A DNA stretch of 64,000 bases from Firmicutes bacterium UBA5509 (GCA_002423965.1 DIOR01000023.1:90997-154996), one strand, 5' to 3'. Positions 10,324-60,373 are shown, counted from the stretch's first letter. Translations and numbers: made by a program. The notes: generated by a model from the letters alone, not told the origin.

Positions 10324-10380
10324 AAATCTTGTATTCTTATTAGAACTTTGCTATTATAGTGAAAGGGTGCTTTAGTTGGG

Positions 10381-11235: not shown

Positions 11236-11267
11236 CACCAATTTAATAAAAATAGGAGGTAAAGGCA

Positions 11268-12095: not shown

Positions 12096-12464
12096 TTGGG
12101 TCTAAATAATCGCATTCTTGTTGTAGATGATGCAGCCTTCATGCGGATGATGATTAGAGATATTCTCACCAAAAATAATTTCGAAGTAGTAGGTGAGGCC
12201 ACCAATGGCGATGAAGCTGTCAGCAAATATATTGAATTAAAGCCCGACCTGGTCACCCTGGATATTACCATGCCCGGCATGGATGGGGTCACCGTCCTAA
12301 AAAAAATTCGGGAGCATGATCCCTCAGCTCGGGTTGTAATGTGTTCAGCCATGGGGCAGCAGGCCATGGTTGTTGAGGCTATCCAAAATGGGGCCAGGGA
12401 CTTTATCAATAAGCCCTTTCATCCCCAAAAGGTTGTTGAAATACTCCGCCGGGCATTGAGATAG
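12096..12464 (+). CDS. cheY: Chemotaxis response regulator CheY (stand-alone receiver)
   Basis: 122 aa. ILVVDDAAFMR...DITMPGMDG...NKPF receiver motifs. TTG start after GGGGGAGAGG. Confidence 0.9.
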   Translation: MGLNNRILVVDDAAFMRMMIRDILTKNNFEVVGEATNGDEAVSKYIELKPDLVTLDITMPGMDGVTVLKKIREHDPSARVVMCSAMGQQAMVVEAIQNGARDFINKPFHPQKVVEILRRALR

Positions 12465-14441
12465 GTGATGACTGTGGACAATATAGACTTAAACACATAC
12501 CTGCCCATCTTTATAGAAGAGACCAAAGAAAATATCCAGCAGATTTCTTCTAACCTTCTGCGTTTAGAGCAAGATGAAAATGATGTTGAGGCTATTAACG
12601 AAATTTTTCGGGCTGCTCACACCCTTAAAGGAATGTCTGCCACTATGGGTTATTCCGATATTAGTCAGCTAGCCCACCAGGCTGAGAATCTACTGGATGA
12701 GGTTCGCAACAATAAAACCCATATTACTTCTACTATGATTACCGGCTTTTTTCACATAGTCGATGAGTTTGAAGCTCAGCTGAATTCCTTAGTGGAAACT
12801 GGTGAACCCAGCAAAATCTCACAAGAACGATACCAAGAGATTCTCGCTTTCTTTTCACCGTCTCAGGTAGTGGCTCCCCTAGAGATTATGGAGAAGATCA
12901 GTGAAACGTCAAGGGAAGAAGCTACCGAGGGCGAATGTTTCCTCTTAGAAATATTTTTTAGCAGGGACTGCCAACTTCCTCAAGCTAGGGCGATGATTAT
13001 CTGCAACCAGCTTGCCTCAGTTGGCAAATTGCTTGAGACTTCACCTTCTCAAAAGCATTTGGCTGAACGGGACCAATTGGATAAGCTTACCTGCCGGGTT
13101 TCGGACATTCGTCCTGAGCAGGTCCGGGCTCTTCTGGAGGGTGGAGTTGAAGTTGATTATTACACCATCGAAAAGTACAATTGTGACCAGGAGATTGCGC
13201 CCCAGGTAACAGAGGAAGAAGGAGGGTTTCGTCAGCCTCAGGACAGTACTGATAACTCCGATTCCCACCATGATCCTCTTGTACTCCGGCATACAATTCG
13301 AGTGGATACCGAGAAACTTGATCAGCTTCTCAATTTGGTCAGTGAACTGGTTATCAATAAGACATCCCTACTGCAAGCGGCTACCAACTTTCCCTTACTG
13401 GCTGATGGGGTTGAACATCTCCATCGCCTTACTAGCGAATTGCAAGTAATTGTTATGAAAATGAGGATGATTCCCTTAGAAACAGTCTTTAACCGCTTCC
13501 CCCGCATGGTAAGGGATACCGCAATGGCTGTGGATAAATTGGTTAACTTCGAGATTCGCGGCGCAGAAACAGAGCTAGATAGGACTATAATTGATGATAT
13601 CTCCGATCCCCTTGTTCACTTGCTCCGCAATGCCATTGACCATGGAATCGAAGCTGTGGATCGCCGGGTCAGCATTGGCAAGCCAAGGACAGGTACCATT
13701 CGCCTTGAGGCCTACCAAACAGGAAATCAAGTTGTTATTGAAGTTTCTGATGATGGTCACGGCCTTGATATAGAACAAATACGAGCAAAATCCCGAGAAA
13801 TGGGTTTGCCAGGAGTGGATGCTGATGCAGGTGAATTGGCCAATTTGATTTTCACTCCCGGCTTCAGCACAGTGGAGAGCATCACTGATTTATCTGGCCG
13901 GGGCGTGGGCCTGGACGTGGTAAAAAACTCAATTGAAGCCCTGGGCGGTTCCACCGATGTGTATTCTCGCCCCAATGAGGGCACAACCTTTAAGATTTCT
14001 CTTCCTCTAACTTTAGCAATTATCCAAGGGCTATTGGTCAAATGTAGTGAGGAAATTTACGTCATCCCCTTGAGTTATATCGCGGAAACAGGAATTATCT
14101 TTCCCGAAGATATTCAGACCATTGGTCAACAAGAGATTGTCATGTTGCGAGGAAAGGTACTACCAATTGTCTGTTTAAATAAGCTCCTGGAGATTGAAGG
14201 TCCTGGTCCTACTGAAGAATTGAGCTTGGTTGTGGTCAGATACGGAGAACGGCAAATTGGCATTATCGTAGATGACTTGCTGGGTCAGCAAGATATTGTT
14301 ATAAAAAATGTCAACTGGGGTGAACAATTTTTCCGCAGCTTCCTTGGATGCTCAATACTTGGCGACGGGTCAGTGGTCATGATACTGGACATCAATGTTC
14401 TCCTATCAGTTGTAAGAGCGAGGGAGGTCAATCATGCTTAA
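12465..14441 (+). CDS. cheA: Chemotaxis histidine kinase CheA
   Basis: HPt domain (AAHTLKGMSATMGY), P2, dimerisation and HATPase_c domains (GRGVGLDVVK), and a C-terminal CheW-like domain. Confidence 0.95.
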   Translation: MMTVDNIDLNTYLPIFIEETKENIQQISSNLLRLEQDENDVEAINEIFRAAHTLKGMSATMGYSDISQLAHQAENLLDEVRNNKTHITSTMITGFFHIVDEFEAQLNSLVETGEPSKISQERYQEILAFFSPSQVVAPLEIMEKISETSREEATEGECFLLEIFFSRDCQLPQARAMIICNQLASVGKLLETSPSQKHLAERDQLDKLTCRVSDIRPEQVRALLEGGVEVDYYTIEKYNCDQEIAPQVTEEEGGFRQPQDSTDNSDSHHDPLVLRHTIRVDTEKLDQLLNLVSELVINKTSLLQAATNFPLLADGVEHLHRLTSELQVIVMKMRMIPLETVFNRFPRMVRDTAMAVDKLVNFEIRGAETELDRTIIDDISDPLVHLLRNAIDHGIEAVDRRVSIGKPRTGTIRLEAYQTGNQVVIEVSDDGHGLDIEQIRAKSREMGLPGVDADAGELANLIFTPGFSTVESITDLSGRGVGLDVVKNSIEALGGSTDVYSRPNEGTTFKISLPLTLAIIQGLLVKCSEEIYVIPLSYIAETGIIFPEDIQTIGQQEIVMLRGKVLPIVCLNKLLEIEGPGPTEELSLVVVRYGERQIGIIVDDLLGQQDIVIKNVNWGEQFFRSFLGCSILGDGSVVMILDINVLLSVVRAREVNHA

Positions 14442-36940: not shown

Positions 36941-36981
36941 CAGGGGCAGCGGGCAAACAGGACCGCTGCCCCTGTCTTTTG
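36941..36981 (+). terminator. Strong rho-independent terminator (12-bp stem CAGGGGCAGCGG/CCGCTGCCCCTG + TCTTTTG)
   Basis: Perfect 12-bp inverted repeat with a 10-nt loop and a U-tract. Confidence 0.85.
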
Positions 36982-37020
36982 CATATTGTATTAAGGAAAG
37001 GGCTAGAGGAGGAATGTTAC

Positions 37021-37899
37021 ATGGGGGTCGGAAGAATAGCAATAATTGGCGGTGACGCCAGAGAATTGACACTAGCCATGGAGCTAGTGGAGAAAGGATT
37101 TGACATCTGCCTGTGTGGCTTTGACTCAAGCGCCCTGGCTGGGGTGGAGCATTTCTCTTGCCCCAAGGAAGCAGTCAGAGGAGCTCAGGCTGTAATATTG
37201 CCTATGGCTGGGGTTAAAGGGGACTTAATCTACTGCCCCGGAAACCCAAACCCACCTGAGATACATGAGAATTTTTTTTCGGAACTGCCTGACAAAACTC
37301 CAGTGTTTATTGGCTGGGCCACTAAAGAATTAAAAAAAATGGCGGTAAATGTGCGGCTGGTGGAAATTGCCCAGGATGATGAATTGGCAGTGCTAAATTC
37401 CATCCCCACTGCCGAAGGAGCTGTTGCCATTGCTATTAACGATAGCCCCATTAGCATTCACGGCAACGATGCAATGGTGGTGGGCTTTGGGCGTTGCGGA
37501 ATTTCCTTAGGACGAATGCTAGGAGGCATAGGTGCCCATGTGACAGTGGCTGCCAGAAAGGCTTCTGACCGCGCCAGGGCAACAGAAATGGGGTTTCGTA
37601 CCTGCTCAATAAGCGACCTTCGGGAGCATGTAAAATCAATGGCATTTATTTTCAACACCATTCCGGCGCCGGTGCTGACCCAAGAGGTCTTGGCAAATGC
37701 AAGGAAATGCTCTTTACTTGTAGATATAGCCAGCGGTGGAGGCACGGATTTTGCTGCAGCTGAAAGCTTCGGCATAAAAGCACTTCTCGCTCCAGGGCTA
37801 CCAGGAAAAGTAGCACCGGTAACCGCCGGAAAGATCCTGGGAAAGGTAATTCCCAGGTTACTGTACGAATATGGCATCGGGGGAGGCGGAGAAAAGTGA
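37021..37899 (+). CDS. dpaA: Dipicolinate synthase subunit A (SpoVFA)
   Basis: Rossmann NAD(P)-binding fold (IAIIGGDARE...VVGFGRCG). GAGGAGG lies 8 nt before the ATG. Paired with dpaB downstream. Confidence 0.9.
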   Translation: MGVGRIAIIGGDARELTLAMELVEKGFDICLCGFDSSALAGVEHFSCPKEAVRGAQAVILPMAGVKGDLIYCPGNPNPPEIHENFFSELPDKTPVFIGWATKELKKMAVNVRLVEIAQDDELAVLNSIPTAEGAVAIAINDSPISIHGNDAMVVGFGRCGISLGRMLGGIGAHVTVAARKASDRARATEMGFRTCSISDLREHVKSMAFIFNTIPAPVLTQEVLANARKCSLLVDIASGGGTDFAAAESFGIKALLAPGLPGKVAPVTAGKILGKVIPRLLYEYGIGGGGEK

Positions 37900-38468
37900 A
37901 AAGCTTAAAAATAGGCTTTGCAATAACCGGGTCCCATTGCACTTTTGCGGCAATAACGGATCCGATGAAGGACTTGCGTGCTAAGGGAAACACCTTAATC
38001 CCGATATTGTCTGATGCAGCAGCCAGTACCAGCACTCGTTTTGGGGAGGCTGAGCATTGGACCAAAGCCTTTGCTGATATATCCGGGCATAGGGTAATTT
38101 CTTCAATCAAAGAGGCCGAGGAAATTGTCACCAATAAAGTGGATGTTGTTGTTGTGGCGCCTTGCACAGGAAATACTCTTGGGAAACTGGCAAACGCAAT
38201 AACAGATACTGCCGTGACTATGGTGGTCAAGGCTCAGTTGAGAAATGAAAAACCTGTGGTGTTGGCCATTTCCACAAATGATGGCTTGGCTGGCAATGCT
38301 GTGAACATTGGCAGGCTGCTGGATAAAAAGAATATTTATTTTGTCCCCTTCTGTCAAGATAATCCTCAGGTGAAGCCCCGTTCGCTGGTATGCAATATGT
38401 CCCTGTTGCCGGATACCATTGAAAGTGCAACCCAGGGAATACAAATCCAGCCGATTTTAATAAGGTAG
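37896..38468 (+). CDS. dpaB: Dipicolinate synthase subunit B (SpoVFB, flavoprotein)
   Basis: Flavoprotein fold (IGFAITGSHCTF...VVAPCTGNTLGKLA). The GTGA start overlaps the dpaA stop. Confidence 0.9.
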   Translation: MKSLKIGFAITGSHCTFAAITDPMKDLRAKGNTLIPILSDAAASTSTRFGEAEHWTKAFADISGHRVISSIKEAEEIVTNKVDVVVVAPCTGNTLGKLANAITDTAVTMVVKAQLRNEKPVVLAISTNDGLAGNAVNIGRLLDKKNIYFVPFCQDNPQVKPRSLVCNMSLLPDTIESATQGIQIQPILIR

Positions 38469-45186: not shown

Positions 45187-47409
45187 ATGCCTAGAACTCG
45201 ACGAAGACGCCGGCGAAAGGACCGGCAGGTTCACAATGAGGTCGGTGGCCTGATTATAGTTGCTCTTGCCGTTCTTGCAGGGGCAAGTCTATTTTCTCCT
45301 GATAATGTCGGTAAAATAGGCGGCTTACTTGCTCGCATGCAGTGGACTATTGCTGGCGAATACGCACTTTTTATTCCGTTTTCCTTGCTCTTATGGGGAA
45401 TAAGGATGATTTTCTTCCCCAATTCTCCCTTGTTTGCCCGCAGGGCTATTGGCAGCATGCTGCTAATTCTATGTATATTAACTGCAGTCCACATAGCTGC
45501 CGCTGATAAAGACTATTCCTCAGACCACCTATTGGCTATTTCCCGAGGGGATCCTATTATCGGCGGGGGAATTTTGGGTGCCTTAGGGGCCATTGGTTTG
45601 CTCAAGGCCTTTGGCCTGGTAGGGGGAGTTGTCATCCTGATTTCGGTGGTGTCAATTGGACTCTTCCTGCTCCTTAACATATCCTTGAAAGAGTTTGTCC
45701 AGGGTTTCTCCCGACTGGCCAAATCGGCAGCTAAGGCAATGGTTAAATCCATGTCCCGTCTAAACACTGCAGTGGGGAAATTGGTTAAATCCTCAGGTAC
45801 TCCTATAAAGGACAAGCCTGCTCCAGAGCCTGTCAATATTCACGACTATCAGGTTCCCGTCACAGACGATGGGGGGGATTCTACACCCCAGGAGCCGATT
45901 ATTGTTGAAGCTGAGCCATTGCTTCCTGAAACCATAGAGGAAGTTCTAGAGTTAGAACATGAAGAACCTGAACTTTACCAACTGCCGCCTTTGAACTTGT
46001 TGCAAAAAACCGTTCGCCTCAAAGACCCTCAGGGGAGGAGAGAGCTGGTTTCCCAGGCGGATATTTTAGAAGAGACTTTGGCTAGTTTTGGCATAGAGGC
46101 AAAGGTCATCAATGTTCACCGGGGGCCCACCATTACCAGGTTTGAAATTCAGCCAGCTTCAGGTGTCAAGGTCAGCAGAATTGTCAACCTTGCCGATGAC
46201 TTGGCCTTGAATCTGGCGGCTACAGGAGTAAGAATTGAGGCACCTATTCCAGGCAAGTCTGCCGTGGGCCTAGAATTGGCCAATAAATCCAAAGCTACTG
46301 TGTATTTGCGGGAAGTGCTGGAGACCAGCGAATTCCTTGATAACCCCTCGAAATTAGCAATTGCCCTGGGTAAGGATATTGCAGGGGCGACGGTTATTGC
46401 GGATTTGATGGACATTCCTCACCTCCTGATTGCTGGGGCCACAGGTTCTGGTAAGTCTGTCTGTCTCAATTCGATTATCATATCCCTATTGTACAAAGCC
46501 AAACCTTCGGAACTAAAGTTCTTGCTGATAGATCCGAAAGTTGTGGAATTAAACGTCTACAACGGACTGCCTCACTTGCTTTGCCCCGTTGTCACCGATC
46601 CACGCATGGCAGCCCAGGGGCTAAAAAACATTGTCAAGGAAATGGAGCAGCGCTATCATCTCTTTGCAGAGGTCGGAGCCAGGGATATACTGCGCTATAA
46701 TGAATCTGCCCAGGAAAGAGGGGAGAAACCCCTGCCCTATGTCATCGTCATAATTGACGAGCTGGCAGACCTAATGATGACTTCTCCTACAGAGGTAGAG
46801 GACTCTATCTTTAGGATTGCCCAGAAGTCTCGAGCCGCTGGAATTCACCTTATTGTAGCAACCCAGCGCCCTTCAGTGGATGTCATTACGGGGGTTATAA
46901 AAGCCAATCTTACAACGCGAATGGCCTTTGCCGTTTCCTCCAGTGCTGACTCCAAGACAATTCTCGACATGGGGGGAGCAGAAAAACTTTTGGGTCGTGG
47001 AGATATGCTCTTCTTCCCATTTGGGGCCTCCAAGCCACAGCGGCTCCAAAGTGCGTACATTTCCGATGAAGAAGTTGAAAATGTCGTCGCCCATGTCCTT
47101 GCTCAGTCCATGCCCGTGCTACGCACTGATTTCCTACAGCCCCATGAAGGTGAGACTGAGAAAGAGCTTTTGGAGATGGACGAATTGCTACCGGAAGCTG
47201 CAAGGATGATTGTTGAAAGTGGCCAAGCCTCAATTTCCATGTTGCAAAGGCGCCTGCGCGTTGGATATACCAGAGCCGGAAGGCTAATTGACAGTATGGA
47301 ACGGTTGTCCATTGTCGGGGGTCATGAGGGCAGTAAAGCCAGAAAAATCTTAGTTACCCTGGCACAGTTGGAAGAAATCCTAGAAAACCAAAATTTATAT
47401 ACCCCATAA
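45187..47409 (+). CDS. ftsK: DNA translocase FtsK/SpoIIIE
   Basis: N-terminal transmembrane domain, linker, motor domain (HLLIAGATGSGKSV...IIDELADLM), and a C-terminal gamma winged helix. Confidence 0.95.
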   Translation: MPRTRRRRRRKDRQVHNEVGGLIIVALAVLAGASLFSPDNVGKIGGLLARMQWTIAGEYALFIPFSLLLWGIRMIFFPNSPLFARRAIGSMLLILCILTAVHIAAADKDYSSDHLLAISRGDPIIGGGILGALGAIGLLKAFGLVGGVVILISVVSIGLFLLLNISLKEFVQGFSRLAKSAAKAMVKSMSRLNTAVGKLVKSSGTPIKDKPAPEPVNIHDYQVPVTDDGGDSTPQEPIIVEAEPLLPETIEEVLELEHEEPELYQLPPLNLLQKTVRLKDPQGRRELVSQADILEETLASFGIEAKVINVHRGPTITRFEIQPASGVKVSRIVNLADDLALNLAATGVRIEAPIPGKSAVGLELANKSKATVYLREVLETSEFLDNPSKLAIALGKDIAGATVIADLMDIPHLLIAGATGSGKSVCLNSIIISLLYKAKPSELKFLLIDPKVVELNVYNGLPHLLCPVVTDPRMAAQGLKNIVKEMEQRYHLFAEVGARDILRYNESAQERGEKPLPYVIVIIDELADLMMTSPTEVEDSIFRIAQKSRAAGIHLIVATQRPSVDVITGVIKANLTTRMAFAVSSSADSKTILDMGGAEKLLGRGDMLFFPFGASKPQRLQSAYISDEEVENVVAHVLAQSMPVLRTDFLQPHEGETEKELLEMDELLPEAARMIVESGQASISMLQRRLRVGYTRAGRLIDSMERLSIVGGHEGSKARKILVTLAQLEEILENQNLYTP

Positions 47410-48438
47410 GGACCCGGTCTCCGGGTTTTTTGGGTTTAGGTTCTCAATGTCCGACACTATTTTCTCTGGCAACCGGGCAATTTCTGAATAGTCCATACCC
47501 GACCTGTATACCTCTTCCAACTGACTATGGAGCTTAGCAGCCTTAGCCATGTCATCAATAGCCCTTTCAATATAATTACTGACTTGGCTTTCTAATTCAG
47601 AAGGTCCAGTATATTCGGGGCCAAATTCACCATCAATTCCCTTGACTAGGTGGGGCTGATGACTTGAAAAAATCGCTAATTCTCCTGGAATATAAATATG
47701 CTCTAAGTGCTGGGGCTGCAGACCACAATAGAGGTAGAGGGCAGGAATATGGTGCAGGGAGAGGTGGCGGGATATTTCCACCAAAACAAGAGAATTAAAA
47801 GCTCTGTTACCGCCAACTAAGGCAAAGCTGTGCTTGACTTTCAGGCTGGGTAAAAAGCTGACAAAGCCATCGGCGGTAATCCCCGTAGCAAAGGCATGGC
47901 GTATAATCCCCTTAGAGGGTGTGGAAATATATTCTTTGATATGAGCCGCAATTTCCCGGGCATTGAGCTTAACCCGGGTGCGCTCCAGTTGCTGAACCTG
48001 GTCTGCCAGTCCCCCTGCCACAGCCAACCAGCCATAAGCGGCTTTATATCTATTAGCTTTTTCTGCAACGAGATCTTGTATTTTTTTGCGCTGTGCAATC
48101 AATACCTTTTCGTCCCAATAACGGCCTAAATCTATTACCTGTTGCACTGCTCCAGGTAAATGGGGGTCTATTGTATGGGGAGATGTGCCATCAATAATTG
48201 ATACTTGCTGAGAAGGAATGAAAAGACCGTCCAGGGAATCCGAAGCTGCTGTGCAATGGTATTTTTCCAGGGAGCAGGGGTAATTCCTGGAAACCTTTTG
48301 AATAATAGTTGATTTTCCGGTGCCGGGACCGCCTTTAAGGATGAAAACTCTGTTAAGACTGTCCATGGCTAGGTATTGATAGTGGGAAAAAAATCCCCTA
48401 GAGGAATTTGCACCGGCAAAAAGATGGATAGTGGTCAC
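47395..48438 (-). CDS. Uncharacterised P-loop NTPase (Walker A GGPGTGKST), about 347 aa
   Basis: On the - strand GAAAGGAAG lies 8 nt upstream of a GTG (MTTIHLFAGAN...). Walker A ILKGGPGTGKST and a Walker B-like VSIIDG. The ORF track extends to 48510 with a TTG that has no RBS. Confidence 0.7.
   Translation of the reverse strand: MTTIHLFAGANSSRGFFSHYQYLAMDSLNRVFILKGGPGTGKSTIIQKVSRNYPCSLEKYHCTAASDSLDGLFIPSQQVSIIDGTSPHTIDPHLPGAVQQVIDLGRYWDEKVLIAQRKKIQDLVAEKANRYKAAYGWLAVAGGLADQVQQLERTRVKLNAREIAAHIKEYISTPSKGIIRHAFATGITADGFVSFLPSLKVKHSFALVGGNRAFNSLVLVEISRHLSLHHIPALYLYCGLQPQHLEHIYIPGELAIFSSHQPHLVKGIDGEFGPEYTGPSELESQVSNYIERAIDDMAKAAKLHSQLEEVYRSGMDYSEIARLPEKIVSDIENLNPKNPETGSLWGI
47412..47431. terminator. 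Short bidirectional hairpin (ACCCGG-tct-CCGGGT + TTTTTT) at the ftsK 3' end; it lies inside the 3' coding end of the convergent gene
   Basis: Inverted repeat and a T6 run seen directly. Overlaps the last 15 codons of the minus-strand ORF. Confidence 0.45.
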
Positions 48439-48543
48439 GGCAATAACTTCCTTTCTGTTTTCTGTATTATCATACTGCCGGCACAAAGTTTCAGTGCAAT
48501 TAGAGGGCAAATTTGATATACTCTTTTTATGGAGTGAAGGTCA

Positions 48544-49305: not shown

Positions 49306-49315
49306 GGTGAATGTA

Positions 49316-50089
49316 ATGGATCAAATCGTCAGTCAGTTAATTGAAGCTCGCAACAAAGCCGGTCTTAGTCTGGAGGATCTGCACAAATTGACAATGATTC
49401 CAGTCAGGCAATTAGAATACCTGGAATCATATCAGTTTGACAAAATAGGTCCCTCTGTCTATGTCAAAGGTTTTATGCGCAGGTACGCTGAAGAAGTTGG
49501 CATTGACCCCGACAGCCTATGGCAGATTGAAACAAGTCAGCTTCCATTAGCTTCTCCTGTCAAGGCCAAAGGCAGTCGTCCGCCTCTAAAGAATTATCTT
49601 ATCCCTATTGTGCGCATTCTTGCTGTTTTAGCCATTCTCTTTTTAGTAGGGGTCCTGATTTACAAAGCTTATATTTCTTTTAACCAGCCAGCTCCCCCTG
49701 CACCACCAGCACCGCCCGGACATGAGGACCAGGAACCCGAACCGGAGCCGCAGCCGGAGCCTGAACCCGAACCGGAACCCCAGGTGACAGCAGAACCGGT
49801 GCAGGTAGATAGTAACGATGCAATCTATTTGATTCACAATGCCGAGAGCCTTGAAGTGACTTTAGACTTTAGCGGTAGTTGTTGGACCCGCATGACTGTT
49901 GACGGGAAGAAGGCAGGGGAGAGTACTTTTACCTCCGGCCAACAACACCAGTTGGCTGCAACGGAGTACGTGAAAATCAGGTTCGGTGCCCCCCTTTATG
50001 TCAGCGTTACTGTCAATGGCGTCCCAATTGAAACCCCGGAACTACGAAAGGGCTTTAATTTGGAAATTAGGTTGGCTCCTGCCGATTAG
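49316..50089 (+). CDS. rodZ: Cytoskeleton protein RodZ (XRE-type HTH, TM segment, Pro/Glu-rich linker, DUF4115)
   Basis: HTH (LIEARNKAGLSLEDLHKLTMIPVRQLEYLE), transmembrane segment (LIPIVRILAVLAILFLVGVLIY), PPAPPAPP and PEPEPQ repeats, C-terminal beta domain. Confidence 0.85.
   Translation: MDQIVSQLIEARNKAGLSLEDLHKLTMIPVRQLEYLESYQFDKIGPSVYVKGFMRRYAEEVGIDPDSLWQIETSQLPLASPVKAKGSRPPLKNYLIPIVRILAVLAILFLVGVLIYKAYISFNQPAPPAPPAPPGHEDQEPEPEPQPEPEPEPEPQVTAEPVQVDSNDAIYLIHNAESLEVTLDFSGSCWTRMTVDGKKAGESTFTSGQQHQLAATEYVKIRFGAPLYVSVTVNGVPIETPELRKGFNLEIRLAPAD
49694..49793 (+). repeat. Low-complexity Pro-Ala / Pro-Glu repeat-coding tract inside rodZ (CCN-GAR tandem repeats)
   Basis: Encodes PPAPPAPP...EPEPEPQPEPEPEPEPQ. 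The tandem GAACCS units are visible in the DNA. Confidence 0.6.
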
Positions 50090-50105
50090 AACTGGGAGAG
50101 TGTTT

Positions 50106-51410
50106 ATGGATAGAATCGCTATAGTGAATATGGGTTGCCCAAAAAATCAAATTGACTCAGAAACCATGTCGGGGTTGTTGGCTGAAGAAGGGTACCAGCT
50201 TACTCCCCATCCGGAAAGTGCAGATATCATCGTGGTCAATACTTGCAGTTTCATAGATGAAGCCAGACAGGAATCAATAGACCAAATACTCACTATGGCT
50301 AAATACAAAAAGACTGGCTGCTGTCGCCAGTTGCTTGTAACCGGTTGTCTGGCCCAAATGCATCATCAGGAGTTGGCTCAAGAGATTCCCGAGGTGGATG
50401 GTTTTCTTGGCACAGGCAGTGTGGATAAAATACTGGAGGTCATTAAAGGGGAAGGAGCCCTAATATCTCCTCCCGAACAGTATGACGGTAGGGCAGAAAC
50501 CAGGCGCTTACTTTCCACCTATCCCTTTGGGTATTTAAAAATTGCTGAAGGCTGTAGCAATCACTGTTCCTATTGTGTCATTCCGAAATTAAGAGGTCCT
50601 TTGCGCAGCAAAGAGTTGAACCAAATCCTTTCGGAAGCCCGTTGGTTAGTGCAAAGGGGAGTAAAGGAAATTATCCTCATTGCTCAAGATACCTCTCAAT
50701 ATGGACTGGATATTGGCGGCATAAGCCTATTGCCTCAATTACTAAGGGAACTAGAAGAAATACCTGGCCTACAGTGGATGCGCTTGTTATACTGTTATCC
50801 CGATAATATTACTGATGAGCTCATAGACGTCATTGCCGCCTCCAATAAGCTGTGCAAATACCTAGATATACCCCTTCAGCACAGTCATCCTTCCATTTTA
50901 AGCAGCATGGGCCGAAGGGGCAGGGGAGAGGCAAGGGAGCTCATTGACAAACTCCGGTGCCGCATCCCCGATATTTCCTTAAGGACAACATTCATAGTGG
51001 GCTATCCCGGCGAAACACAGGAGCATTTTCATCACTTGTTGGATTTTATCCGGTGGGCAGAGTTTGACCATTTAGGGGCATTTACTTATTCCCAGGAGGA
51101 AGCGACTAGGGCAGGCGCCATGAAAAATCAAGTAGCACCCGCAATCAAGAAAAACCGTTACCACCAACTTATGACGGCTCAGCAACAAATTGTCCGTAAT
51201 CGCAACCAAAAGCTAATTGGAAGTAAGTATGATGTACTTGTAGATACCATTAGCCAAGGCCTGGCTTACGGACGTAGTTACAGGGAAGCCCCTGAAATCG
51301 ACAGCAACATCATTTTTCCGGCCATGTCTGTTGAAGTGGGAGACTTTGTGTCAGTAAGGTGCACCAGCTTCGATGGCTATGACCTAATGGGAGAGATCGA
51401 TAATGGATAG
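50106..51410 (+). CDS. rimO: Radical-SAM methylthiotransferase, most likely ribosomal protein S12 methylthiotransferase RimO (MiaB family)
   Basis: N-terminal MTTase domain (IAIVNMGCPKNQIDSE), radical-SAM CSNHCSYC, C-terminal TRAM domain. Position is upstream of pgsA. The RimO versus MiaB distinction is not certain. Confidence 0.75.
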   Translation: MDRIAIVNMGCPKNQIDSETMSGLLAEEGYQLTPHPESADIIVVNTCSFIDEARQESIDQILTMAKYKKTGCCRQLLVTGCLAQMHHQELAQEIPEVDGFLGTGSVDKILEVIKGEGALISPPEQYDGRAETRRLLSTYPFGYLKIAEGCSNHCSYCVIPKLRGPLRSKELNQILSEARWLVQRGVKEIILIAQDTSQYGLDIGGISLLPQLLRELEEIPGLQWMRLLYCYPDNITDELIDVIAASNKLCKYLDIPLQHSHPSILSSMGRRGRGEARELIDKLRCRIPDISLRTTFIVGYPGETQEHFHHLLDFIRWAEFDHLGAFTYSQEEATRAGAMKNQVAPAIKKNRYHQLMTAQQQIVRNRNQKLIGSKYDVLVDTISQGLAYGRSYREAPEIDSNIIFPAMSVEVGDFVSVRCTSFDGYDLMGEIDNG

Positions 51411-51984
51411 CGTAGCAAACAAAATTACAGTTGCCAGGATTATTCTTGCCCCCTTGTATGTCATTATTTTTTTGCTTCCTATTCCCTACAGGGAATTATG
51501 GGCTGCATTGCTCTTTGTAATTGCTGCAAGTTCCGACGGCCTAGATGGCTACTTGGCCAGAAAAAGCAAGACGGTGACCACCTTTGGCAAATTTCTCGAT
51601 CCCCTTGCAGACAAGCTCTTGATTTCCGCCGCCCTTATTACCTTGACCTGGCTACAGCAGGTTGGGCCTCTAGCGGTATTTACTATTATCTGCCGGGAAT
51701 TTGCTGTAACGGGTTTACGGGTTATCGCAGCCAGTCAGGGAACAGTGATCTCTGCAAGTAAATTGGGAAAGGCCAAGACATTGTCCCAGATCATCGCCAT
51801 CACCGCTCTAACCCTAAATCTAGGCCTTGACAGCGGTAATACATGGGTGCATAAGGTTTTAGGCTTTCTGCCTGTAGAACTCATTGCCAAGATTGCCATC
51901 ATCGTTGCTGTCATCATGACAGTAGTATCGGGATTAGATTACTTTATCAAAAATAAATATGTTTTTAAAAAGGGATTGGCATAG
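51403..51984 (+). CDS. pgsA: CDP-diacylglycerol--glycerol-3-phosphate 3-phosphatidyltransferase
   Basis: DGLDGYLAR...G..LDPLADK CDP-alcohol phosphatidyltransferase motif. Confidence 0.9.
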   Translation: MDSVANKITVARIILAPLYVIIFLLPIPYRELWAALLFVIAASSDGLDGYLARKSKTVTTFGKFLDPLADKLLISAALITLTWLQQVGPLAVFTIICREFAVTGLRVIAASQGTVISASKLGKAKTLSQIIAITALTLNLGLDSGNTWVHKVLGFLPVELIAKIAIIVAVIMTVVSGLDYFIKNKYVFKKGLA

Positions 51985-51999
51985 GCCAATCCTTTTTTT
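51970..51999 (+). terminator. Rho-independent terminator overlapping the pgsA stop (AAGGGATTGGC-ata-GCCAATCCTT + TTTTTTG)
   Basis: 10-bp stem and a T7 tract. Confidence 0.75.
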
Positions 52000-52002
52000 G
52001 TT

Positions 52003-52032
52003 ATTAAAAAAAAACCCCTGCCGTGTTATAAT
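52003..52032 (+). promoter_or_regulatory. Candidate sigma-A promoter with an extended -10 (TGtTATAAT) in front of the hyp-ftsH-like-pncC-phosphoesterase gene set
   Basis: TATAAT at 52027-52032 with TG at -15/-14. The -35 is only A/T-rich (TTATTA). Confidence 0.5.
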
Positions 52033-52063
52033 ATCTTATGTAAACTAGGAGGTGTGAATGCTC

Positions 52064-52549
52064 ATGCGTTGGAAACTGTTCTTGCCACTGGCGGTGATTC
52101 TTACATTGCTAGGAATGCTGGGCAGCAATTATTGGTCTGCATCAGCATCTCACCGGCAAATAGCCGCATTGCAACAAGAAAGCGTTGCTAATATCTCAGA
52201 GAATGAGGATAGTATTGTCCTTAGCCTTGAAGCTAATGGTGACCTGGCAGATATCTTAGCTAATCTGGACCAAGAGAAAGTCAACAGGGTACTGGCGGGC
52301 AGGGAGCTGAAATTACAACGGACTGGGCTGGTGCCCATCGACTTGGATTTTTCTCGACAGGTTGATTTACTTGTTGCCCAAGCGGTGGCAACTCGTGAAT
52401 ACTACTCAGCCAGCCTGATGCTTGAAAAAATGGCCCAGGAGCATGGGTACAACTCTGCTTTAGTTATCTGGGGGGATAGGGTGGTGGCTGAGGTTGGTGA
52501 CAGCCTTGAATGTCATATCGCCCAGCAGGTTATGGAGGTGAGACCATGA
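52064..52549 (+). CDS. Hypothetical signal-anchored/secreted protein (about 161 aa)
   Basis: N-terminal hydrophobic segment (WKLFLPLAVILTLLGMLG). AGGAGGTG lies 9 nt before the ATG. The stop overlaps the next gene's start (ATGA). Confidence 0.55.
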   Translation: MRWKLFLPLAVILTLLGMLGSNYWSASASHRQIAALQQESVANISENEDSIVLSLEANGDLADILANLDQEKVNRVLAGRELKLQRTGLVPIDLDFSRQVDLLVAQAVATREYYSASLMLEKMAQEHGYNSALVIWGDRVVAEVGDSLECHIAQQVMEVRP

Positions 52550-54015
52550 AAGAAATAGCAGCGGCTGTGGTAGTGGCCGCTTTGGCAGTCCTTGCCCTAA
52601 ATGGAGTTAATATCATGCCCTATATTTTAGTCTCGATAATTGGCTTAATGCTGGTTACTCGCTTTGAACTCTTTGGCAAAATCACTAACGGCGCCAAGTA
52701 TTCATCCGAGAAAGGGACCCTTTCGGATATCAGCTTTGATGTGGTGGGGGGGCAGGATGATGCAAAGGAAGACCTGATGGAAGCTTTGTCTCTCTTAAAG
52801 TCCTCCCGAAACACCAAGTTGGGAATTAAGCCTTTGGGGGGCATCCTCCTTCAAGGCCCACCGGGAACGGGCAAGACGCTGATGGCAAGGGCCGCCGCCA
52901 ACTATACTGATTCGATCTTTTTGGCTGCATCCGGCAGTGAATTCGTAGAAATGTATGCTGGAGTTGGAGCCAAACGTGTGCGGGATCTATTTAGCAAAGC
53001 CCGGCGCTTGGCGCGCAGGCATCGCAAGGAATCTGCAATGGTCTTTATCGATGAAATGGATGTTGTAGGTGCAAAAAGAGGAAAAGTTGAAAGTCATATG
53101 GAGTATGACCAGACCCTTAATCAGCTCCTGGTAGAACTTGATGGCATTGAGGATACCAGCGATGTCAAATTATTTGTCCTGGGGGCAACCAATAGAGCAG
53201 ATCTCTTAGATGAGGCTCTCCTCCGGCCAGGGCGTTTCGACAGAATTGTCGACATCGGTCTTCCTGATTTAGACGGTAGATTGGCGATATTGAAAATTCA
53301 CTGCCAGGGAAAGCCACTGGCTCCGGATGTGGATTTAACGGACATTGCTCATCAGACCTATGGTTTTTCCGGCGCACATCTGGCTAATTTGGCCAATGAG
53401 GCTGCGATTCAAGCAATGCGCCGTGGTGATGACAATATTATGCACAATGACTTCCTGGAATCCATCGACAAAGTTCAGCTTGGTGGCATTAGGGAAGGCT
53501 TGCTTTCATCTGCTGAAAAACAGCGGGTGGCGATTCATGAATCTGGACATGCCCTCATTAGTGAACTGTTTTTCCCCGGCTCCGTTTCAACGGTAACAGT
53601 TGTACCACGGTCCAAGACCCTAGGCTTTATCCGCCAAAAGGAAGATGTGGCCCCTGTTCTTCAGACCGAATCCTATCTGAAGAAACAGTTATGTGTGCTT
53701 TTGGCCGGAGGCGCTGCTGAGGAACTGGTTTTAGGCGAAGGCAGCACCGGTGCCGCCAATGATTACCAACGGGCTACCGAGATCAGTAAAAATATTATTG
53801 TCCACGGTCTTTCAAGATTGGGTATAATTAATATGGACCACATCGATAATCGGGAATTCAACATGGTTAGCAGTGAAATCATTAAAGAGAGCCGCGATAA
53901 GGTGGCAGGCGTTCTCGCCAGTCACCGTGACGCCCTGGATGGGGCCGCTGCAATATTGGCAGAGCAAGAAAGGATTTCTGGAGAAGATTTTCGCAATCTG
54001 ATGCATCAAGGATAA
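52546..54015 (+). CDS. Short FtsH-family AAA+ zinc metalloprotease paralog (N-terminal TM hairpin, no periplasmic domain)
   Basis: Walker A GPPGTGKT, Walker B FIDEMD, second region of homology (GATNRADLLDEALLRPGRFDR), HEXXH (HESGH) and a downstream GAANDYQRAT third zinc ligand. 489 aa, against about 600-650 for canonical FtsH. Confidence 0.85.
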   Translation: MKEIAAAVVVAALAVLALNGVNIMPYILVSIIGLMLVTRFELFGKITNGAKYSSEKGTLSDISFDVVGGQDDAKEDLMEALSLLKSSRNTKLGIKPLGGILLQGPPGTGKTLMARAAANYTDSIFLAASGSEFVEMYAGVGAKRVRDLFSKARRLARRHRKESAMVFIDEMDVVGAKRGKVESHMEYDQTLNQLLVELDGIEDTSDVKLFVLGATNRADLLDEALLRPGRFDRIVDIGLPDLDGRLAILKIHCQGKPLAPDVDLTDIAHQTYGFSGAHLANLANEAAIQAMRRGDDNIMHNDFLESIDKVQLGGIREGLLSSAEKQRVAIHESGHALISELFFPGSVSTVTVVPRSKTLGFIRQKEDVAPVLQTESYLKKQLCVLLAGGAAEELVLGEGSTGAANDYQRATEISKNIIVHGLSRLGIINMDHIDNREFNMVSSEIIKESRDKVAGVLASHRDALDGAAAILAEQERISGEDFRNLMHQG

Positions 54016-54056
54016 GCCTGTTACAGGCTTATCACTACATAGCAGGAGGAAGAAAA

Positions 54057-54545
54057 ATGGAGAAGATGGAGAAGGCTGCCCACTTAGTGGAAACCCTAAT
54101 AAATTACCACATTTCTTTATGCACGGCAGAATCTTGTACTGGGGGAGGCATTGCAGACAGGATTACTGATATTCCCGGTGCAAGCCGGGTTTTTGTAGGT
54201 GGTGTAGTAGTATATACCCCTGAAGCCAAGACAATTCTATTGAATCTGCCTACATCAGAGATTCCCCTGGGTGCGGTTGGGGAAGAATTAACTGTGAGCA
54301 TGGCCTCAAGGGCGAAGTCTTTGTTAGGGACTGATCTGGCCCTTGGCATTACAGGGGCCTTGGGCCCCACAAGCCCTGGGGACCACATCAAGGTTGGCCA
54401 GGTGTATATTAGCATCGCCGGGTTGGGGCACCAGGAGGTGACTCAGATTATTTTCTCCGGAGACAGGCAGACTATAAAGGAAACAGCAGTAGAGACCAGC
54501 ATTGATTTACTATTGGCCTATATCGCGAGGTGGTACATTGCCTAG
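54057..54545 (+). CDS. pncC: CinA C-terminal domain only (PncC nicotinamide-nucleotide amidohydrolase-like)
   Basis: LCTAESCTGG...VFVGGVVVY signature. The N-terminal MoCF-like domain of full-length CinA is absent. Confidence 0.85.
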   Translation: MEKMEKAAHLVETLINYHISLCTAESCTGGGIADRITDIPGASRVFVGGVVVYTPEAKTILLNLPTSEIPLGAVGEELTVSMASRAKSLLGTDLALGITGALGPTSPGDHIKVGQVYISIAGLGHQEVTQIIFSGDRQTIKETAVETSIDLLLAYIARWYIA

Positions 54546-55962
54546 GGCTTCCGCCGTACTAAAAATTATCCTTGTCGGGATACTGGGGGCCATGCTCCTG
54601 GTTTCCCTTTTGTCCTCCCAAGACATAAATGCTCGAGCCCTGGACCTTACCCTGTCCACGTCCTTTGTTCAAGGTGGATTTACCGAGCTGGCTATACCCC
54701 CCTTGGGTACAATCCGAGCCAAGACTCATCACTTTCCCTTGAGGTTTCGCGTCAGTTTAAAGGACATCAATCTTGATAGGCTAAAAACACTAGTCTCCCA
54801 AGAACCAGAAAGCATTTTTCCGGAAATTGAGGCATCCTTCCGCTCACAAATATTATTCTTTGTGCTGCGGTTATTGTTTTTGTCCCTACTGGGGGGATTT
54901 GTCCTAGGATACATTCTTTTTCGAAAGCCTAGTCAGGCATTGCTAGCAGGATTGGCTGGACTTTTGGCTTTTGCAATCCTGATTGGCGGTGCGGCTTTAA
55001 CTTTTAATGAAAATGCTTTCCAAGAACCGGAGTTTACTGGCGTAGTAGAGGCTGCGCCATGGCTATTGGGCGTTGCAGAGGAAGCATTGATAGCGGTGGA
55101 TAGTCTCGATGAAAAGCTCAAGGTCATCGCCTCAAATCTAACTCTTATGTTTGAGTCCCTTAGCTTGGTAGGGGCAGAGAATGCAGTTATTGACGGAGAG
55201 CTAAAGATTCTCCACGTTTCTGATGTACATAACAATCCCTTGGGGATTTCTTTGGCTTTTCAGATGGCTGACGCCTTTAGGGCAGATTTAATTATTGACA
55301 CCGGAGACGCCACCGACTATGGCACTCCCATTGAGGGAGAGATGGTAAGTAAGATCAGTCAAAACAGGCTTCCCTGGATTTTTGTGCCTGGAAACCATGA
55401 TTCTCCTGCAGTAATAGAGGAGCTGAAAGAGGTAGAAAATGTCACCGTTCTAGAAGCAGGCTTAGTCTACCTTGAGGAATTTGACTTGACTATTGCTGGT
55501 ATTGGAGACCCGGCAGCGGTAAAAACCGAAATGCGTGTGCCCTCTAAAGAAGAATACAAGGAAGCCGCTTCACGGTTAATGGAGATTATCCAACAATCAG
55601 AGAAGAAGCCTGCAATTATTATTTCTCACAATGGAGCGGTTGTTGAGGAGTTTACCCATATGCCGGTTACTTTGTTACATGGCCACAGTCACCGGGTGAA
55701 TATTCGCACACTGGATCAGGCAGCAATTATTGACGCAGGCACCACTGGTGGCGCAGGGATAAGGGGACTTATGACCAGGGATGAGATTCCCTATACTATG
55801 GTTTTGCTCCATCTGCATCGCTTGGAGGATAATTGGCAAGTGATTGCTGCCGATATCATTACTTTTAACCAGCAAAATACAGGATTCATTCTTGAGCGCA
55901 AACGGCTTGCTAACCCAGGTACTTTGGAAACTGAAGACATGGAAGAGAGTCCTGAGGAATAG
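54538..55962 (+). CDS. Membrane-anchored calcineurin-like metallophosphoesterase
   Basis: About 3 N-terminal transmembrane helices, then LHVSDVHN...DTGDATDYG...PGNHD...GHSH phosphoesterase motifs. TTG start overlapping the pncC end. Confidence 0.8.
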   Translation: MPRASAVLKIILVGILGAMLLVSLLSSQDINARALDLTLSTSFVQGGFTELAIPPLGTIRAKTHHFPLRFRVSLKDINLDRLKTLVSQEPESIFPEIEASFRSQILFFVLRLLFLSLLGGFVLGYILFRKPSQALLAGLAGLLAFAILIGGAALTFNENAFQEPEFTGVVEAAPWLLGVAEEALIAVDSLDEKLKVIASNLTLMFESLSLVGAENAVIDGELKILHVSDVHNNPLGISLAFQMADAFRADLIIDTGDATDYGTPIEGEMVSKISQNRLPWIFVPGNHDSPAVIEELKEVENVTVLEAGLVYLEEFDLTIAGIGDPAAVKTEMRVPSKEEYKEAASRLMEIIQQSEKKPAIIISHNGAVVEEFTHMPVTLLHGHSHRVNIRTLDQAAIIDAGTTGGAGIRGLMTRDEIPYTMVLLHLHRLEDNWQVIAADIITFNQQNTGFILERKRLANPGTLETEDMEESPEE

Positions 55963-55988: not shown

Positions 55989-56017
55989 TTGCTAGAGGCG
56001 AATAAATGTTCTATAAT
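55989..56017 (+). promoter_or_regulatory. recA sigma-A promoter (TTGCTA-17-TATAAT) with an embedded LexA/Cheo box CGAATAAATGTTCT
   Basis: Hexamers and spacing read directly. The box closely matches the B. subtilis recA operator CGAATATGCGTTCG (consensus CGAACN4GTTCG). Confidence 0.7.
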
Positions 56018-56050: not shown

Positions 56051-57061
56051 TTGGAACGACAAAAGGCTCTTGATATGGCAATCCAGCAGATTGAGCGGCA
56101 GTTTGGCAAGGGCTCAATCATGAAACTAGGAGAAGATACTTCACTAAACGTGTCAGTAATCCCTAGCGGCTGTCTGGCACTGGATATCGCCCTTGGTTCT
56201 GGAGGGTACCCCCGGGGGAGGGTTGTGGAAATCTTTGGGCCGGAATCTTCCGGCAAGACTACAGTGGCTCTGCACTTAGTTGCTGAAGCACAAAAGCTGG
56301 GTGGCAACGCAGCCTTTATTGACGCTGAGCATGCCCTGGATCCTGTATATGCCAAAAACCTTGGGGTAAATGTGGACGAGCTCTATGTTTCCCAGCCAGA
56401 TACAGGGGAACAAGCTCTTGAAATTGCCGAAGCTCTTGTGCGCAGCGGCGCTATCGATGTTGTTATTGTTGACTCTGTAGCTGCTCTGGTTCCCAAAGCT
56501 GAGATTGAAGGGGATATGGGTGACGCCCACGTTGGTCTACAAGCTCGCCTCATGTCTCAAGCTCTGCGGAAATTATCTGGAGCTATTAGCAAGTCAGGAA
56601 CCGTAACGGTTTTTATCAATCAAATTCGCGAGAAGGTCGGAATCATGTTTGGCAACCCCGAAGTCACTCCCGGTGGAAGGGCTCTCAAGTTCTATGCCTC
56701 AGTGCGCCTTGACATTCGCAGAATCGAGACCCTGAAACAGGGCACTGAGATGATTGGCAATAGGACTAGAGCCAAAGTTGTCAAGAATAAGATTGCCCCA
56801 CCCTTCAAACAAGCAGAATTTGATATCATGTATGGCCAGGGGATTTCCAGAGAGGGTTCTGTTTTAGACACTGCCGCAGAATTGGACATCGTCAACAAAA
56901 GTGGATCTTGGTATTCCCTGGACTCCGAAAGGTTGGGCCAAGGGCGAGAAAACGCCAAGGAATTTCTTAAAAATAATCCCGAGGTAACAGATCAAATTGA
57001 AAAAAAAGTGCGGGAGCATTACCAATTAGGTTCATTTAATGCCCCTGTAAAGGAAGAGTAG
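56051..57061 (+). CDS. recA: Recombinase RecA
   Basis: [27 protein letters not shown]-terminus and Walker [13 protein letters not shown] start 9 nt after GGGAGG. The upstream in-frame ATG of the ORF track lies inside the promoter. Confidence 0.95.
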
Positions 57062-59260: not shown

Positions 59261-60022
59261 ATGAAAGTATTATTTATCGGCGATATTGTCGGTGGCAGTG
59301 GACGCAATGCCGTCGCCGCGATCTTGCCTGAATTGGCTCGTGAACAATCCTGGGACCTGTGTATTGCCAATGCCGAAAACTCTGCCGGTGGCAAGGGGAT
59401 AACCGCCGCTATTGCCGAAGAATTGCTGGCAACAGGCATTGACGTCATGACCATGGGCAATCACACCTGGGATAATAAAGAGATATTCAAGTTCATCGAT
59501 GATGCTCATTACCTGGTGCGGCCAGCAAATTACCCAATAAATGTTCCTGGTCAGGGATATACTGTGGTCGAAATAAAAGGAAAAAGAGTTGCAGTGATCA
59601 ATTTATCCGGACAAGTGTTTATGGGTTCTATGGACTGCCCCTTTGCCAAAGCTGACGAATTATTATTAAGTCTCTCGGATTGCGATTACATAATCATCGA
59701 TTTTCATGGGGAAGCCACTGCCGAAAAGGTTGGCTTTGCCCGTTATGTCGACGGCAGGGCAGCTGCTGTAATCGGTACCCATACTCATATTCAGACCGCC
59801 GATGAAGGGCTTTTGCCTCAGGGGACTTTGTATATCACTGATGTAGGAGCAACTGGTGCAATAAATTCTGTGTTGGGTATGGAAGTTGGGCCGGTGATAA
59901 AGCGGTTGACTACTAAATTGCCCCAGCGCTTTGTAGCCGCCAAGGGCCCTGCAATGATGTGCGCTGTGTTGATGGATTTATCCGCCAAAAAGATTTTACG
60001 CATTGCACTTACTGCTGAATAG
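59261..60022 (+). CDS. ymdB: YmdB-family metallophosphoesterase (2',3'-cyclic-nucleotide phosphodiesterase)
   Basis: MKVLFIGDIVG...ANAENSAGG...GNHTWD signature. Sits in the rny-ymdB-spoVS synteny. Confidence 0.9.
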   Translation: MKVLFIGDIVGGSGRNAVAAILPELAREQSWDLCIANAENSAGGKGITAAIAEELLATGIDVMTMGNHTWDNKEIFKFIDDAHYLVRPANYPINVPGQGYTVVEIKGKRVAVINLSGQVFMGSMDCPFAKADELLLSLSDCDYIIIDFHGEATAEKVGFARYVDGRAAAVIGTHTHIQTADEGLLPQGTLYITDVGATGAINSVLGMEVGPVIKRLTTKLPQRFVAAKGPAMMCAVLMDLSAKKILRIALTAE

Positions 60023-60112: not shown

Positions 60113-60373
60113 TTGGACGTATTGAAAGTATCAGCAAAATCCAATCCTAATTCCGTCGCCGGAGCATTGGCAGGTGTCCTGCGGGAGCGGGGTGGTGCTG
60201 AAATGCAGGCCATCGGTGCCGGGGCCCTGAACCAGGCTGTCAAAGCCGTTGCAATCGCAAGAGGATTCGTCGCTCCCAGTGGTGTTGACCTAATCTGCAT
60301 CCCCGCCTTTACAGACATAATTATCGATGGTGAAGAACGTACTGCCATCAAGCTCATTGTTGAACCGCGTTAG
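60113..60373 (+). CDS. spoVS: Stage V sporulation protein S
   Basis: 86 aa, about 90% identical to B. subtilis SpoVS as I recall it (LKVSAKSNPNSVAGALAGVLRERG...). TTG start 8 nt after AGAGGGGG. Confidence 0.95.
   Translation: MDVLKVSAKSNPNSVAGALAGVLRERGGAEMQAIGAGALNQAVKAVAIARGFVAPSGVDLICIPAFTDIIIDGEERTAIKLIVEPR

Follow-up and report, generated by a model that had tools for sequence, protein, structure and literature searches.

This study concerns a 64,000-nucleotide stretch of DNA from Firmicutes bacterium UBA5509 (GCA_002423965.1 DIOR01000023.1:90997-154996; hereafter the window), in which four genes at positions 52003-55962, between pgsA and recA, encode a small membrane protein (the partner), a short paralogue of the membrane protease FtsH (sFtsH), a CinA reduced to its PncC domain and a metallophosphoesterase (MPE) with three transmembrane (TM) helices. 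The reading that we favour, with moderate confidence, is that the region belongs to an ancestral, vertically inherited block of non-Bacilli Bacillota, the core of which would be a two-component membrane AAA+ zinc protease formed by the partner and sFtsH. In many bacteria no AAA+ protease other than FtsH is membrane-bound or essential, and the control of its substrate choice by its membrane and ectodomain parts is still debated. At least several hundred species from many Bacillota lineages have an ectodomain-less second FtsH with its own partner gene, and the sFtsH-partner pair may be regarded as a natural split enzyme in which anchoring, regulation and catalysis are separable. Among open-access papers and preprints, none was found on the pair, on the partner family or on the 3-TM MPE; a preliminary description of this DNA, made from the sequence alone, had likewise assigned no described function to the four genes.

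The open reading frames (ORFs) of the window place the four genes where they had been described, all on one strand:

52064-52549, + strand: partner, a small single-pass membrane protein of 161 aa (163 aa from an alternative ATG at 52058), with an N-terminal hydrophobic helix and then an alpha/beta domain
52546-54015, + strand: sFtsH, 489 aa, with AAA+ and M41 domains
54057-54545, + strand: PncC-only CinA, 162 aa, with the upstream ribosome-binding site AGGAGG
54538-55962, + strand: 3-TM MPE, 474 aa, most likely from a TTG start at 54538

Homologues of the partner begin at MRWK. The start of sFtsH is the ATG at 52546, the 52510 start of the mechanical ORF being set aside, and an identical protein of 489 aa is present in public collections; this ATG overlaps the partner stop codon as ATGA. 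The TTG start of the MPE gene fits close homologues of 473-474 aa and gives an 8-nt overlap with the cinA stop. The genes had been described as translationally coupled throughout; this holds for the overlapping partner-sFtsH and cinA-MPE genes, but sFtsH and cinA do not overlap and are separated by a 41-nt spacer with a hairpin, so that only two of the three junctions are coupled.

The partner and sFtsH as an obligate pair

Focusing on sFtsH, species-representative genomes, a set to which the window's own genome does not belong, were scanned with the subfamily signatures F[VI]EMYAGV and SH[LM]EYDQT, and at least 570 stretches matched these peptides. Window proteins were mapped onto 80 of these loci (numbered with the prefix L) for gene order. 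The sFtsH start coincides in nearly every locus with the end of an ORF that is 170-200 aa long and encodes an N-terminal hydrophobic helix. A hidden Markov model (HMM) was built from the upstream ORFs and searched against the 3950 ORFs (at least 80 aa) of all loci: a partner-family ORF lies immediately 5' of sFtsH, ending -60 to +400 nt from its start, in 76 of 77 eligible loci, and in the 77th the partner lies 1.3 kb upstream. The gap between the two genes has a median of 2 nt, with many overlaps of 4 to 8 nt, and in nine loci the partner ends 100-250 nt upstream of sFtsH. Outside the pair the HMM gave a single match among the 3950 ORFs, of 16.9 bits, to the second sFtsH copy in L062, and the partner was also recovered in loci outside the training set (L012, L053 and L089). 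The partner and sFtsH form an obligate pair, and this result is robust. The preliminary description had seen the weak points of its proposal in a possible lack of conservation of the 161-aa ORF and in a possible scattering of the short FtsH and its partners over unrelated loci; the ORF is conserved, and sFtsH and the partner are not scattered.

Searches of the four proteins with Pfam and NCBIfam models upheld the domains that had been called. In sFtsH, Pfam detects AAA (PF00004, 118.9 bits), AAA_lid_3 and Peptidase_M41 (PF01434, 95.5 bits), and no match to FtsH_ext (PF06480) at E <= 0.01. The protein scores below the FtsH equivalog cutoffs (415 versus 600 bits for TIGR01241 and 287.8 versus 1008 bits for NF008004) and, as judged from its sequence, is a member of a paralogous subfamily and not a canonical FtsH orthologue. 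Walker A (GPPGTGKT), Walker B (FIDE), the second region of homology (TNR..LLRPGRFDR) and HExGH (H331, E332 and H335), with D406 at the third-ligand position, are invariant in an alignment of 20 sequences from many lineages, which agrees with the complete motif set first noted for the 489-aa protein. Since these catalytic motifs are intact and invariant, and since residues 61-486 align to the cytosolic region of solved FtsH structures, sFtsH is expected to be active as an ATP-dependent zinc protease. The N-terminus, where a Pro and an N-terminal K/E are conserved, is a hydrophobic hairpin (around residues 4-40) of two segments of about 15 residues joined by the 4-residue loop NGVN; this hairpin could be re-entrant or could cross the membrane as a minimal TM hairpin.

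A protein search with sFtsH returned thousands of matches, the best 120 of which are all about 490 aa long; members come from Desulfotomaculum, Symbiobacterium, Sulfobacillus, Limnochorda, Carboxydochorda, Orenia, Frackibacter and Desulforudis. Identity is about 48-55% across Desulfotomaculum, Symbiobacterium, Sulfobacillus, Limnochorda, Halanaerobiales, Tepidanaerobacter, Thermincola, Syntrophothermus and Proteinivorax, and the nearest representative to the window protein among the matches listed is from the uncultured 'Firmicutes bacterium UBA4975' (72% identity). Public annotation names these proteins 'AAA family ATPase', 'vesicle-fusing ATPase' or 'cell division protease FtsH'. L062, from a metagenome-assembled genome (MAG) of Thermoanaerobacterales, carries two convergent sFtsH copies (10001-11440 and, on the - strand, 12409-13680), the second of which is 42% identical to the window sFtsH. 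L058, L064 and L065 show typical Bacillota synteny at sFtsH but their records name Desulfovibrio, Bacteroidota or Acetobacteraceae MAGs; these labels likely reflect binning contamination and not an occurrence beyond Bacillota.

No Pfam domain was found in partner-family proteins, no Pfam or NCBIfam model matched the window partner, and fold comparison gave no convincing structural match. A HMMER search with the profile of the window-clade partner returned only 13 proteins, all close relatives, among 1.84 billion representatives. Comparison of the window partner with the wider family by hhalign gave a probability of 97.4% (E 1.2e-11, 135 columns), and at the level of profiles the window partner is a divergent member of this family. 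Its membership is seen only by profile-profile comparison with ORFs harvested by synteny, and a sequence search alone therefore makes it an apparent orphan. The partner evolves much faster than sFtsH, with 38-46% versus 68-72% identity to the nearest relatives. In the window clade its N-terminus resembles a signal peptide and contains an invariant SASAS motif, which hints at export. A public label of '3-hydroxy-3-methylglutaryl CoA synthase', given to the window partner (163 aa) by one annotation pipeline, was rejected as it has no domain support.

Conserved gene order across Bacillota

The order rodZ-rimO-(pgsA)-partner-sFtsH-cinA-(MPE)-recA-(recX)-rny repeats in distant Bacillota lineages. 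Proteinivorax tanatarense has rodZ-rimO-pgsA-partner-sFtsH-cinA-MPE-recA-recX, gene for gene, and Desulfotomaculum nigrificans has the window order minus the MPE. The neighbours of sFtsH were found as follows:

rimO, up to 3 kb upstream: 39 of 67 testable loci
cinA, up to 2.5 kb downstream: 48 of 71 testable loci
MPE, up to 5 kb downstream: 30 of 64 testable loci
recA, up to 8 kb downstream: 37 of 56 testable loci

The MPE gene directly follows cinA in 21 of the 23 loci that have both, and it directly abuts sFtsH in about nine loci without cinA. The self-contained module of the preliminary description thus stands for the obligate pair, whereas the four genes together are unequally tied: the small upstream protein co-occurs with the short FtsH and the phosphoesterase does so in part, in several lineages also outside the recA context.

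Away from recA, a Hydrogenispora-like clade, in which rimO, pgsA, cinA and recA are all missing from the vicinity, carries partner-sFtsH-MPE-LigT flanked by CheX/HD-GYP and OsmC genes, and a metagenomic Bacillota contig carries partner-sFtsH-cinA-MPE-LigT between phoPR and ackA. Genes for CheX and for an HD_5 (HD-GYP-type) protein lie directly 5' of the pair in L050 (7593-9209), L074 (3019-4638) and L075 (7394-8991), and this recurrent context away from recA hints at a signalling link. LigT, a 2H phosphoesterase, is encoded directly 3' of the MPE in three unrelated loci (L004, 16390-16959; L050, 13015-13587; L089, 9693-10268).

It is possible, if somewhat unlikely, that only the partner and sFtsH belong together functionally, that cinA, the MPE gene and recA are housekeeping neighbours kept by regional conservation, and that the four-gene module is an artefact of synteny. 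The incomplete occurrence of cinA and the MPE gene in the counts above fits this explanation, as do the pair by itself beside nuo genes in Limnochorda, the pair beside ClpC/CheX/HD-GYP genes and without an MPE in L075, cinA-MPE without a nearby sFtsH in Acetohalobium, MPE homologues that stand alone in more distant genomes, and the spacer with its hairpin that parts sFtsH from cinA in the window. However, passive synteny with recA fails to explain the partner-sFtsH-MPE(-LigT) and partner-sFtsH-cinA-MPE-LigT blocks away from rimO, pgsA and recA, which argue for some functional cohesion, nor does it fit the loci in which the MPE gene abuts sFtsH without cinA. The association of the pair with the MPE, CinA and LigT is real but facultative.

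The recurrence of the longer order in distant Bacillota makes it likelier that the simple pgsA-cinA-recA string of Bacilli is a reduced state, and this string is more plausibly read as a reduced form of the block than as its original. The pgsA-cinA-recA junction, which belongs to the best-known chromosomal neighbourhoods, may accordingly have to be reread, with a short Bacillus form that looks derived and an older form that holds the protease pair and a predicted outward-facing phosphoesterase. For annotation, two unnamed families are defined here, that of the partner and that of the 3-TM MPE, the latter marked by its PPxG...TH..P loop.

Proposed mechanism and comparison with known systems

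In the block that we favour as ancestral, sFtsH would form the usual hexameric unfoldase-protease at the cytoplasmic face of the membrane, and the TM helix of the partner, with its conserved juxtamembrane motif (GGQ..Y, or GSKYW in the window clade), would dock on the sFtsH hairpin. The partner would thereby give, in trans, a non-catalytic regulatory or substrate-selecting module, which in canonical FtsH is represented by the built-in ectodomain and accessory proteins. In this way membrane proteins would be degraded, under regulation or for quality control, by a two-component machine. A conserved sigma-A extended -10 promoter would, in this genome, drive the genes of the pair together with those of a PncC-type nicotinamide mononucleotide deamidase and of the 3-TM MPE, which is predicted to face outward. 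In this scheme the physical interaction, the direction of regulation, the substrates, the cotranscription and the role of the MPE are what we infer.

The cytosolic architecture, the catalytic residues and the N-terminal membrane anchor of sFtsH are the same as those of canonical FtsH (E. coli FtsH/HflB and B. subtilis FtsH; 2CE7, 2DHR and 7VHP), and both have an aromatic pore-loop residue (MYAG in sFtsH and MFVG in canonical FtsH). In canonical FtsH two TM helices surround an FtsH_ext domain of about 70-100 aa, whereas sFtsH has the short loop described above in its place; sFtsH also differs in the dedicated partner gene that always accompanies it upstream and in lying outside the tilS-hprT-ftsH context. 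The FtsH-HflK/HflC (SPFH) and FtsH-YccA/SpoVM systems are alike in that an FtsH-type protease is combined with small or single-pass membrane modulators of substrate access. Unlike HflKC, the partner is encoded by a gene translationally coupled to that of the protease, with co-occurrence in 77 of 77 loci, and Pfam detects no SPFH/Band-7, Bax-inhibitor or other recognisable modulator domain in it. The mitochondrial i-AAA protease Yme1, with its adaptors Mgr1 and Mgr3, and plastid FtsHi are likewise paralogues within the FtsH family; their membrane or ectodomain parts are reduced, and they depend on separate membrane adaptors. They are eukaryotic organellar proteins, however, with adaptors unrelated in sequence to the partner, and the protease site of sFtsH is intact, unlike that of FtsHi.

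Several points weigh against the two-component block. The hydrophobic segments of sFtsH, at about 15 residues, may form a re-entrant hairpin rather than two full spans. Lysine and arginine flanking the partner TM helix are nearly balanced (1.70 on the N side versus 1.55 on the C side), and the partner domain could be cytoplasmic. Adjacency points to a functional link and not to its nature, so that contact between the partner and sFtsH is something that we infer. The single transcript is suggested by gene spacing and by the lack of a predicted terminator. Furthermore, cinA and the MPE gene are missing from many loci, and the MPE is also found without sFtsH nearby.

The partner might instead be a dedicated substrate or inhibitor of sFtsH, that is, a tethered regulator whose degradation or release signals, in the manner of an anti-sigma factor or of SpoVM and YccA with FtsH. 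The much faster evolution of the partner and the small number of proteins found with its window-clade profile would suit such a role, and SpoVM and YccA are known as small membrane modulators of FtsH that are also its substrates. However, no sigma factor or transcription factor gene consistently adjoins the pair in the loci inspected, and strict 1:1 translational coupling is more usual for stoichiometric subunits; we regard this role as rather improbable. In the two-component protease that we prefer, the partner would be a subunit.

CinA and the metallophosphoesterase

The PncC domain of the CinA scores 133.7 bits with PF02464 and 106.6 bits with TIGR00199 (cutoff 68.9). The test for a full-length CinA failed (117 versus 379 bits for NF001813), and PF02464 alone is found in the 162 aa, with no MoCF_biosynth (COG1058) or KH part, as had been claimed; the N-terminal domain of CinA is encoded nowhere in the window. 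Among the loci compared, the PncC-only form is limited to the window clade (L008-L010) and L035. In the other loci the median distance from sFtsH to the PncC domain is 932 nt, which leaves room for a full-length CinA.

The MPE belongs to a family of about 470 aa found in Halanaerobiales, Proteinivorax, Peptococcaceae, Syntrophothermus and others, in which the five calcineurin-like motifs (DxH, GDxxD, GNH[DE], H and GHxH) are invariant. A Metallophos domain follows three hydrophobic helices, in line with the 3-TM calcineurin-like phosphoesterase that had been proposed. The loop after TM1 has the invariant motif PPxG...TH..P, and a P..G...AAPW motif follows TM3. The predicted structure (predicted local distance difference test score, pLDDT, 82.7) consists of TM1, a loop forming a five-stranded beta-sandwich, TM2-TM3, a poorly defined linker and the C-terminal MPE domain. 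Over 44 members the N-tail has a net charge of +1.39 and the TM2-TM3 loop one of +2.25, and the segment after TM3 has -1.77; from these statistics both the beta-sandwich and the catalytic domain are predicted to be extracytoplasmic.

Structural neighbours of the MPE are generic (TT1561, Mre11/SbcD, Lmo2642, UshA/NadN and ADPRibase-Mn), and it scores under the cutoffs of specific families (34.4 versus 188 for YaeI, 29 versus 56 for YfcE and 17 versus 78 for SbcD). Compared with TT1561, aq_1956, Mre11/SbcD, Lmo2642, UshA/NadN, ADPRibase-Mn and YmdB, its N-terminal module of TM1, beta-sandwich loop and TM2-TM3 is unique. The true YmdB is encoded by a separate gene of the window (59261-60022). Between recA(-recX) and rny, Proteinivorax and Acetohalobium have genes for an SbcD-like MPE and split SMC_N/SbcC-like proteins (L006, 11005-14389; L088, 12199-15568), so that three different MPE genes, 3-TM, SbcD-like and YmdB, lie within about 10 kb.

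In Deinococcus a gene for a LigT phosphoesterase lies between cinA and recA in a cinA-ligT-recA operon (PMC5552922). As in this operon and in the pgsA-cinA-recA string of Bacillus, cinA is upstream of recA in the window; the slot held by LigT in Deinococcus is held here by the 3-TM MPE, and the LigT gene that follows the MPE gene in Orenia, L050 and L089 recalls the Deinococcus arrangement. In contrast to both strings, the window CinA is without the N-terminal ADP-ribose pyrophosphatase/KH part, and the protease pair precedes cinA. A speculative extension, in which we place limited credence, is that the two-component protease was ancestral to Bacillota, with a separately encoded, fast-evolving single-pass subunit that set substrate choice in place of the ectodomain, and formed with the MPE, CinA and LigT one envelope-to-nucleotide processing pathway (acting on NAD/ADP-ribose or nucleic-acid ends) upstream of recA that was lost in Bacilli and classical clostridia.

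Promoters, terminator and origin of the region

The following DNA elements were located:

51967-51998, + strand: intrinsic terminator at the 3' end of pgsA, with a 14-bp stem and a T-run
52004-52045, + strand: sigma-A-type promoter, with a weak -35 (TTAAAA, 52004-52009) and the extended -10 TGTTATAAT (52024-52032)
54012-54032, + strand: hairpin across the sFtsH stop codon, with a perfect 9-bp stem (ATAAGCCTG, 3-nt loop TTA, CAGGCTTAT)
55989-56017, + strand: recA promoter, TTGCTA-17-TATAAT
56000-56011, + strand: LexA-like box GAATAAATGTTC, overlapping the recA -10

The terminator, the extended -10 promoter and the LexA box, all named in the preliminary description, were found and are conserved in three relatives (L008-L010), whose proteins are about 70% identical to those of the window. 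The terminator hairpin and T-run are kept in these loci, with compensatory changes in the stem. The promoter of the partner and sFtsH matches the consensus at 10 of 12 positions, with TG present; TGnTATAAT is invariant in four genomes, and the -35 region is not conserved. Just 3' of the extended -10 the decamer TTATGTAAAC (52036-52045) is likewise invariant in four genomes; it may act as an operator or belong to a conserved 5' leader. The box GAATAAATGTTC is identical upstream of recA in the three relatives, against a background density of 0.01 per 280 nt. The hairpin at 54012-54032 has no T-run and is not called by terminator prediction; it might serve the processing or stability of the mRNA between sFtsH and cinA. 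No terminator is predicted ahead of recA in this genome, in which the partner, sFtsH, cinA and MPE genes would be cotranscribed.

The conserved sigma-A-type promoter argues for vegetative expression, and it bears on a further explanation, that sFtsH is a sporulation-specific protease acting on forespore or mother-cell membrane proteins. A sporulation role has been proposed for an FtsH paralogue in Firmicutes, where the paralogues FtsH(P1) and FtsH(P2) were distinguished and the distribution of P2 tracks that of SpoIID (Garcia et al., 2021; PMC8136486). sFtsH may be one of these two. The window organism has dpaA/dpaB and spoVS, and Desulfotomaculum, Sulfobacillus, Symbiobacterium, Thermincola and Orenia are generally known as spore formers. 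However, the promoter is of the extended -10 sigma-A type and not of the sigma-E, -F, -G or -K type, and sFtsH is present in Tepidanaerobacter and Syntrophothermus, genera usually called non-sporulating; the explanation is doubtful in our view.

The preliminary description had taken the genes for an insert in the pgsA-cinA-recA junction, and a recent horizontal insertion, or a mobile or defence island, is scarcely credible: Bacilli are known to have pgsA-cinA-recA without these genes and the terminator and promoter after pgsA resemble a junction, but GC is uniform (0.45-0.49 in and around the region), no direct or inverted repeats flank the region and no mobility genes were found there, the junction itself is conserved with compensatory changes, and the recurring order in many distant lineages effectively refutes it. 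An anti-phage role, suggested by a weak match of the AAA part to the IteA model (78 bits versus a cutoff of 510), was rejected on score. The vertically inherited block accommodates the recurring order.

Neighbouring genes

Ten co-oriented genes on the + strand, rodZ, rimO, pgsA, partner, sFtsH, cinA, MPE, recA, recX and rny, were identified from window ORFs and Pfam, among them:

49307-50089, + strand: rodZ
49986-51410, + strand: rimO, mechanical ORF, overlapping rodZ by about 100 nt
51403-51984, + strand: pgsA
56051-57061, + strand: recA, probable TTG start at 56051 (mechanical ORF from 56006), the downstream boundary of the cluster

The linker of RodZ is long and made of Pro/Glu repeats (PAPPAPPAP...EPEPEPQPEPEPEPEP), and the true start of rimO is probably at about 50106 (MDRIAIVNMGCPKN). 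Upstream of asd-dapG-dapA lie dpaA/dpaB, for dipicolinate synthase (36979-38468), and spoVS (60113-60373) follows ymdB; with these genes the organism looks like an endospore former of an uncultured Bacillota lineage. The sole sizeable gene of the window on the - strand (47395-48510, 371 aa) lies between ftsK and a DUF3388 gene, and its product gives weak P-loop/AAA matches only.

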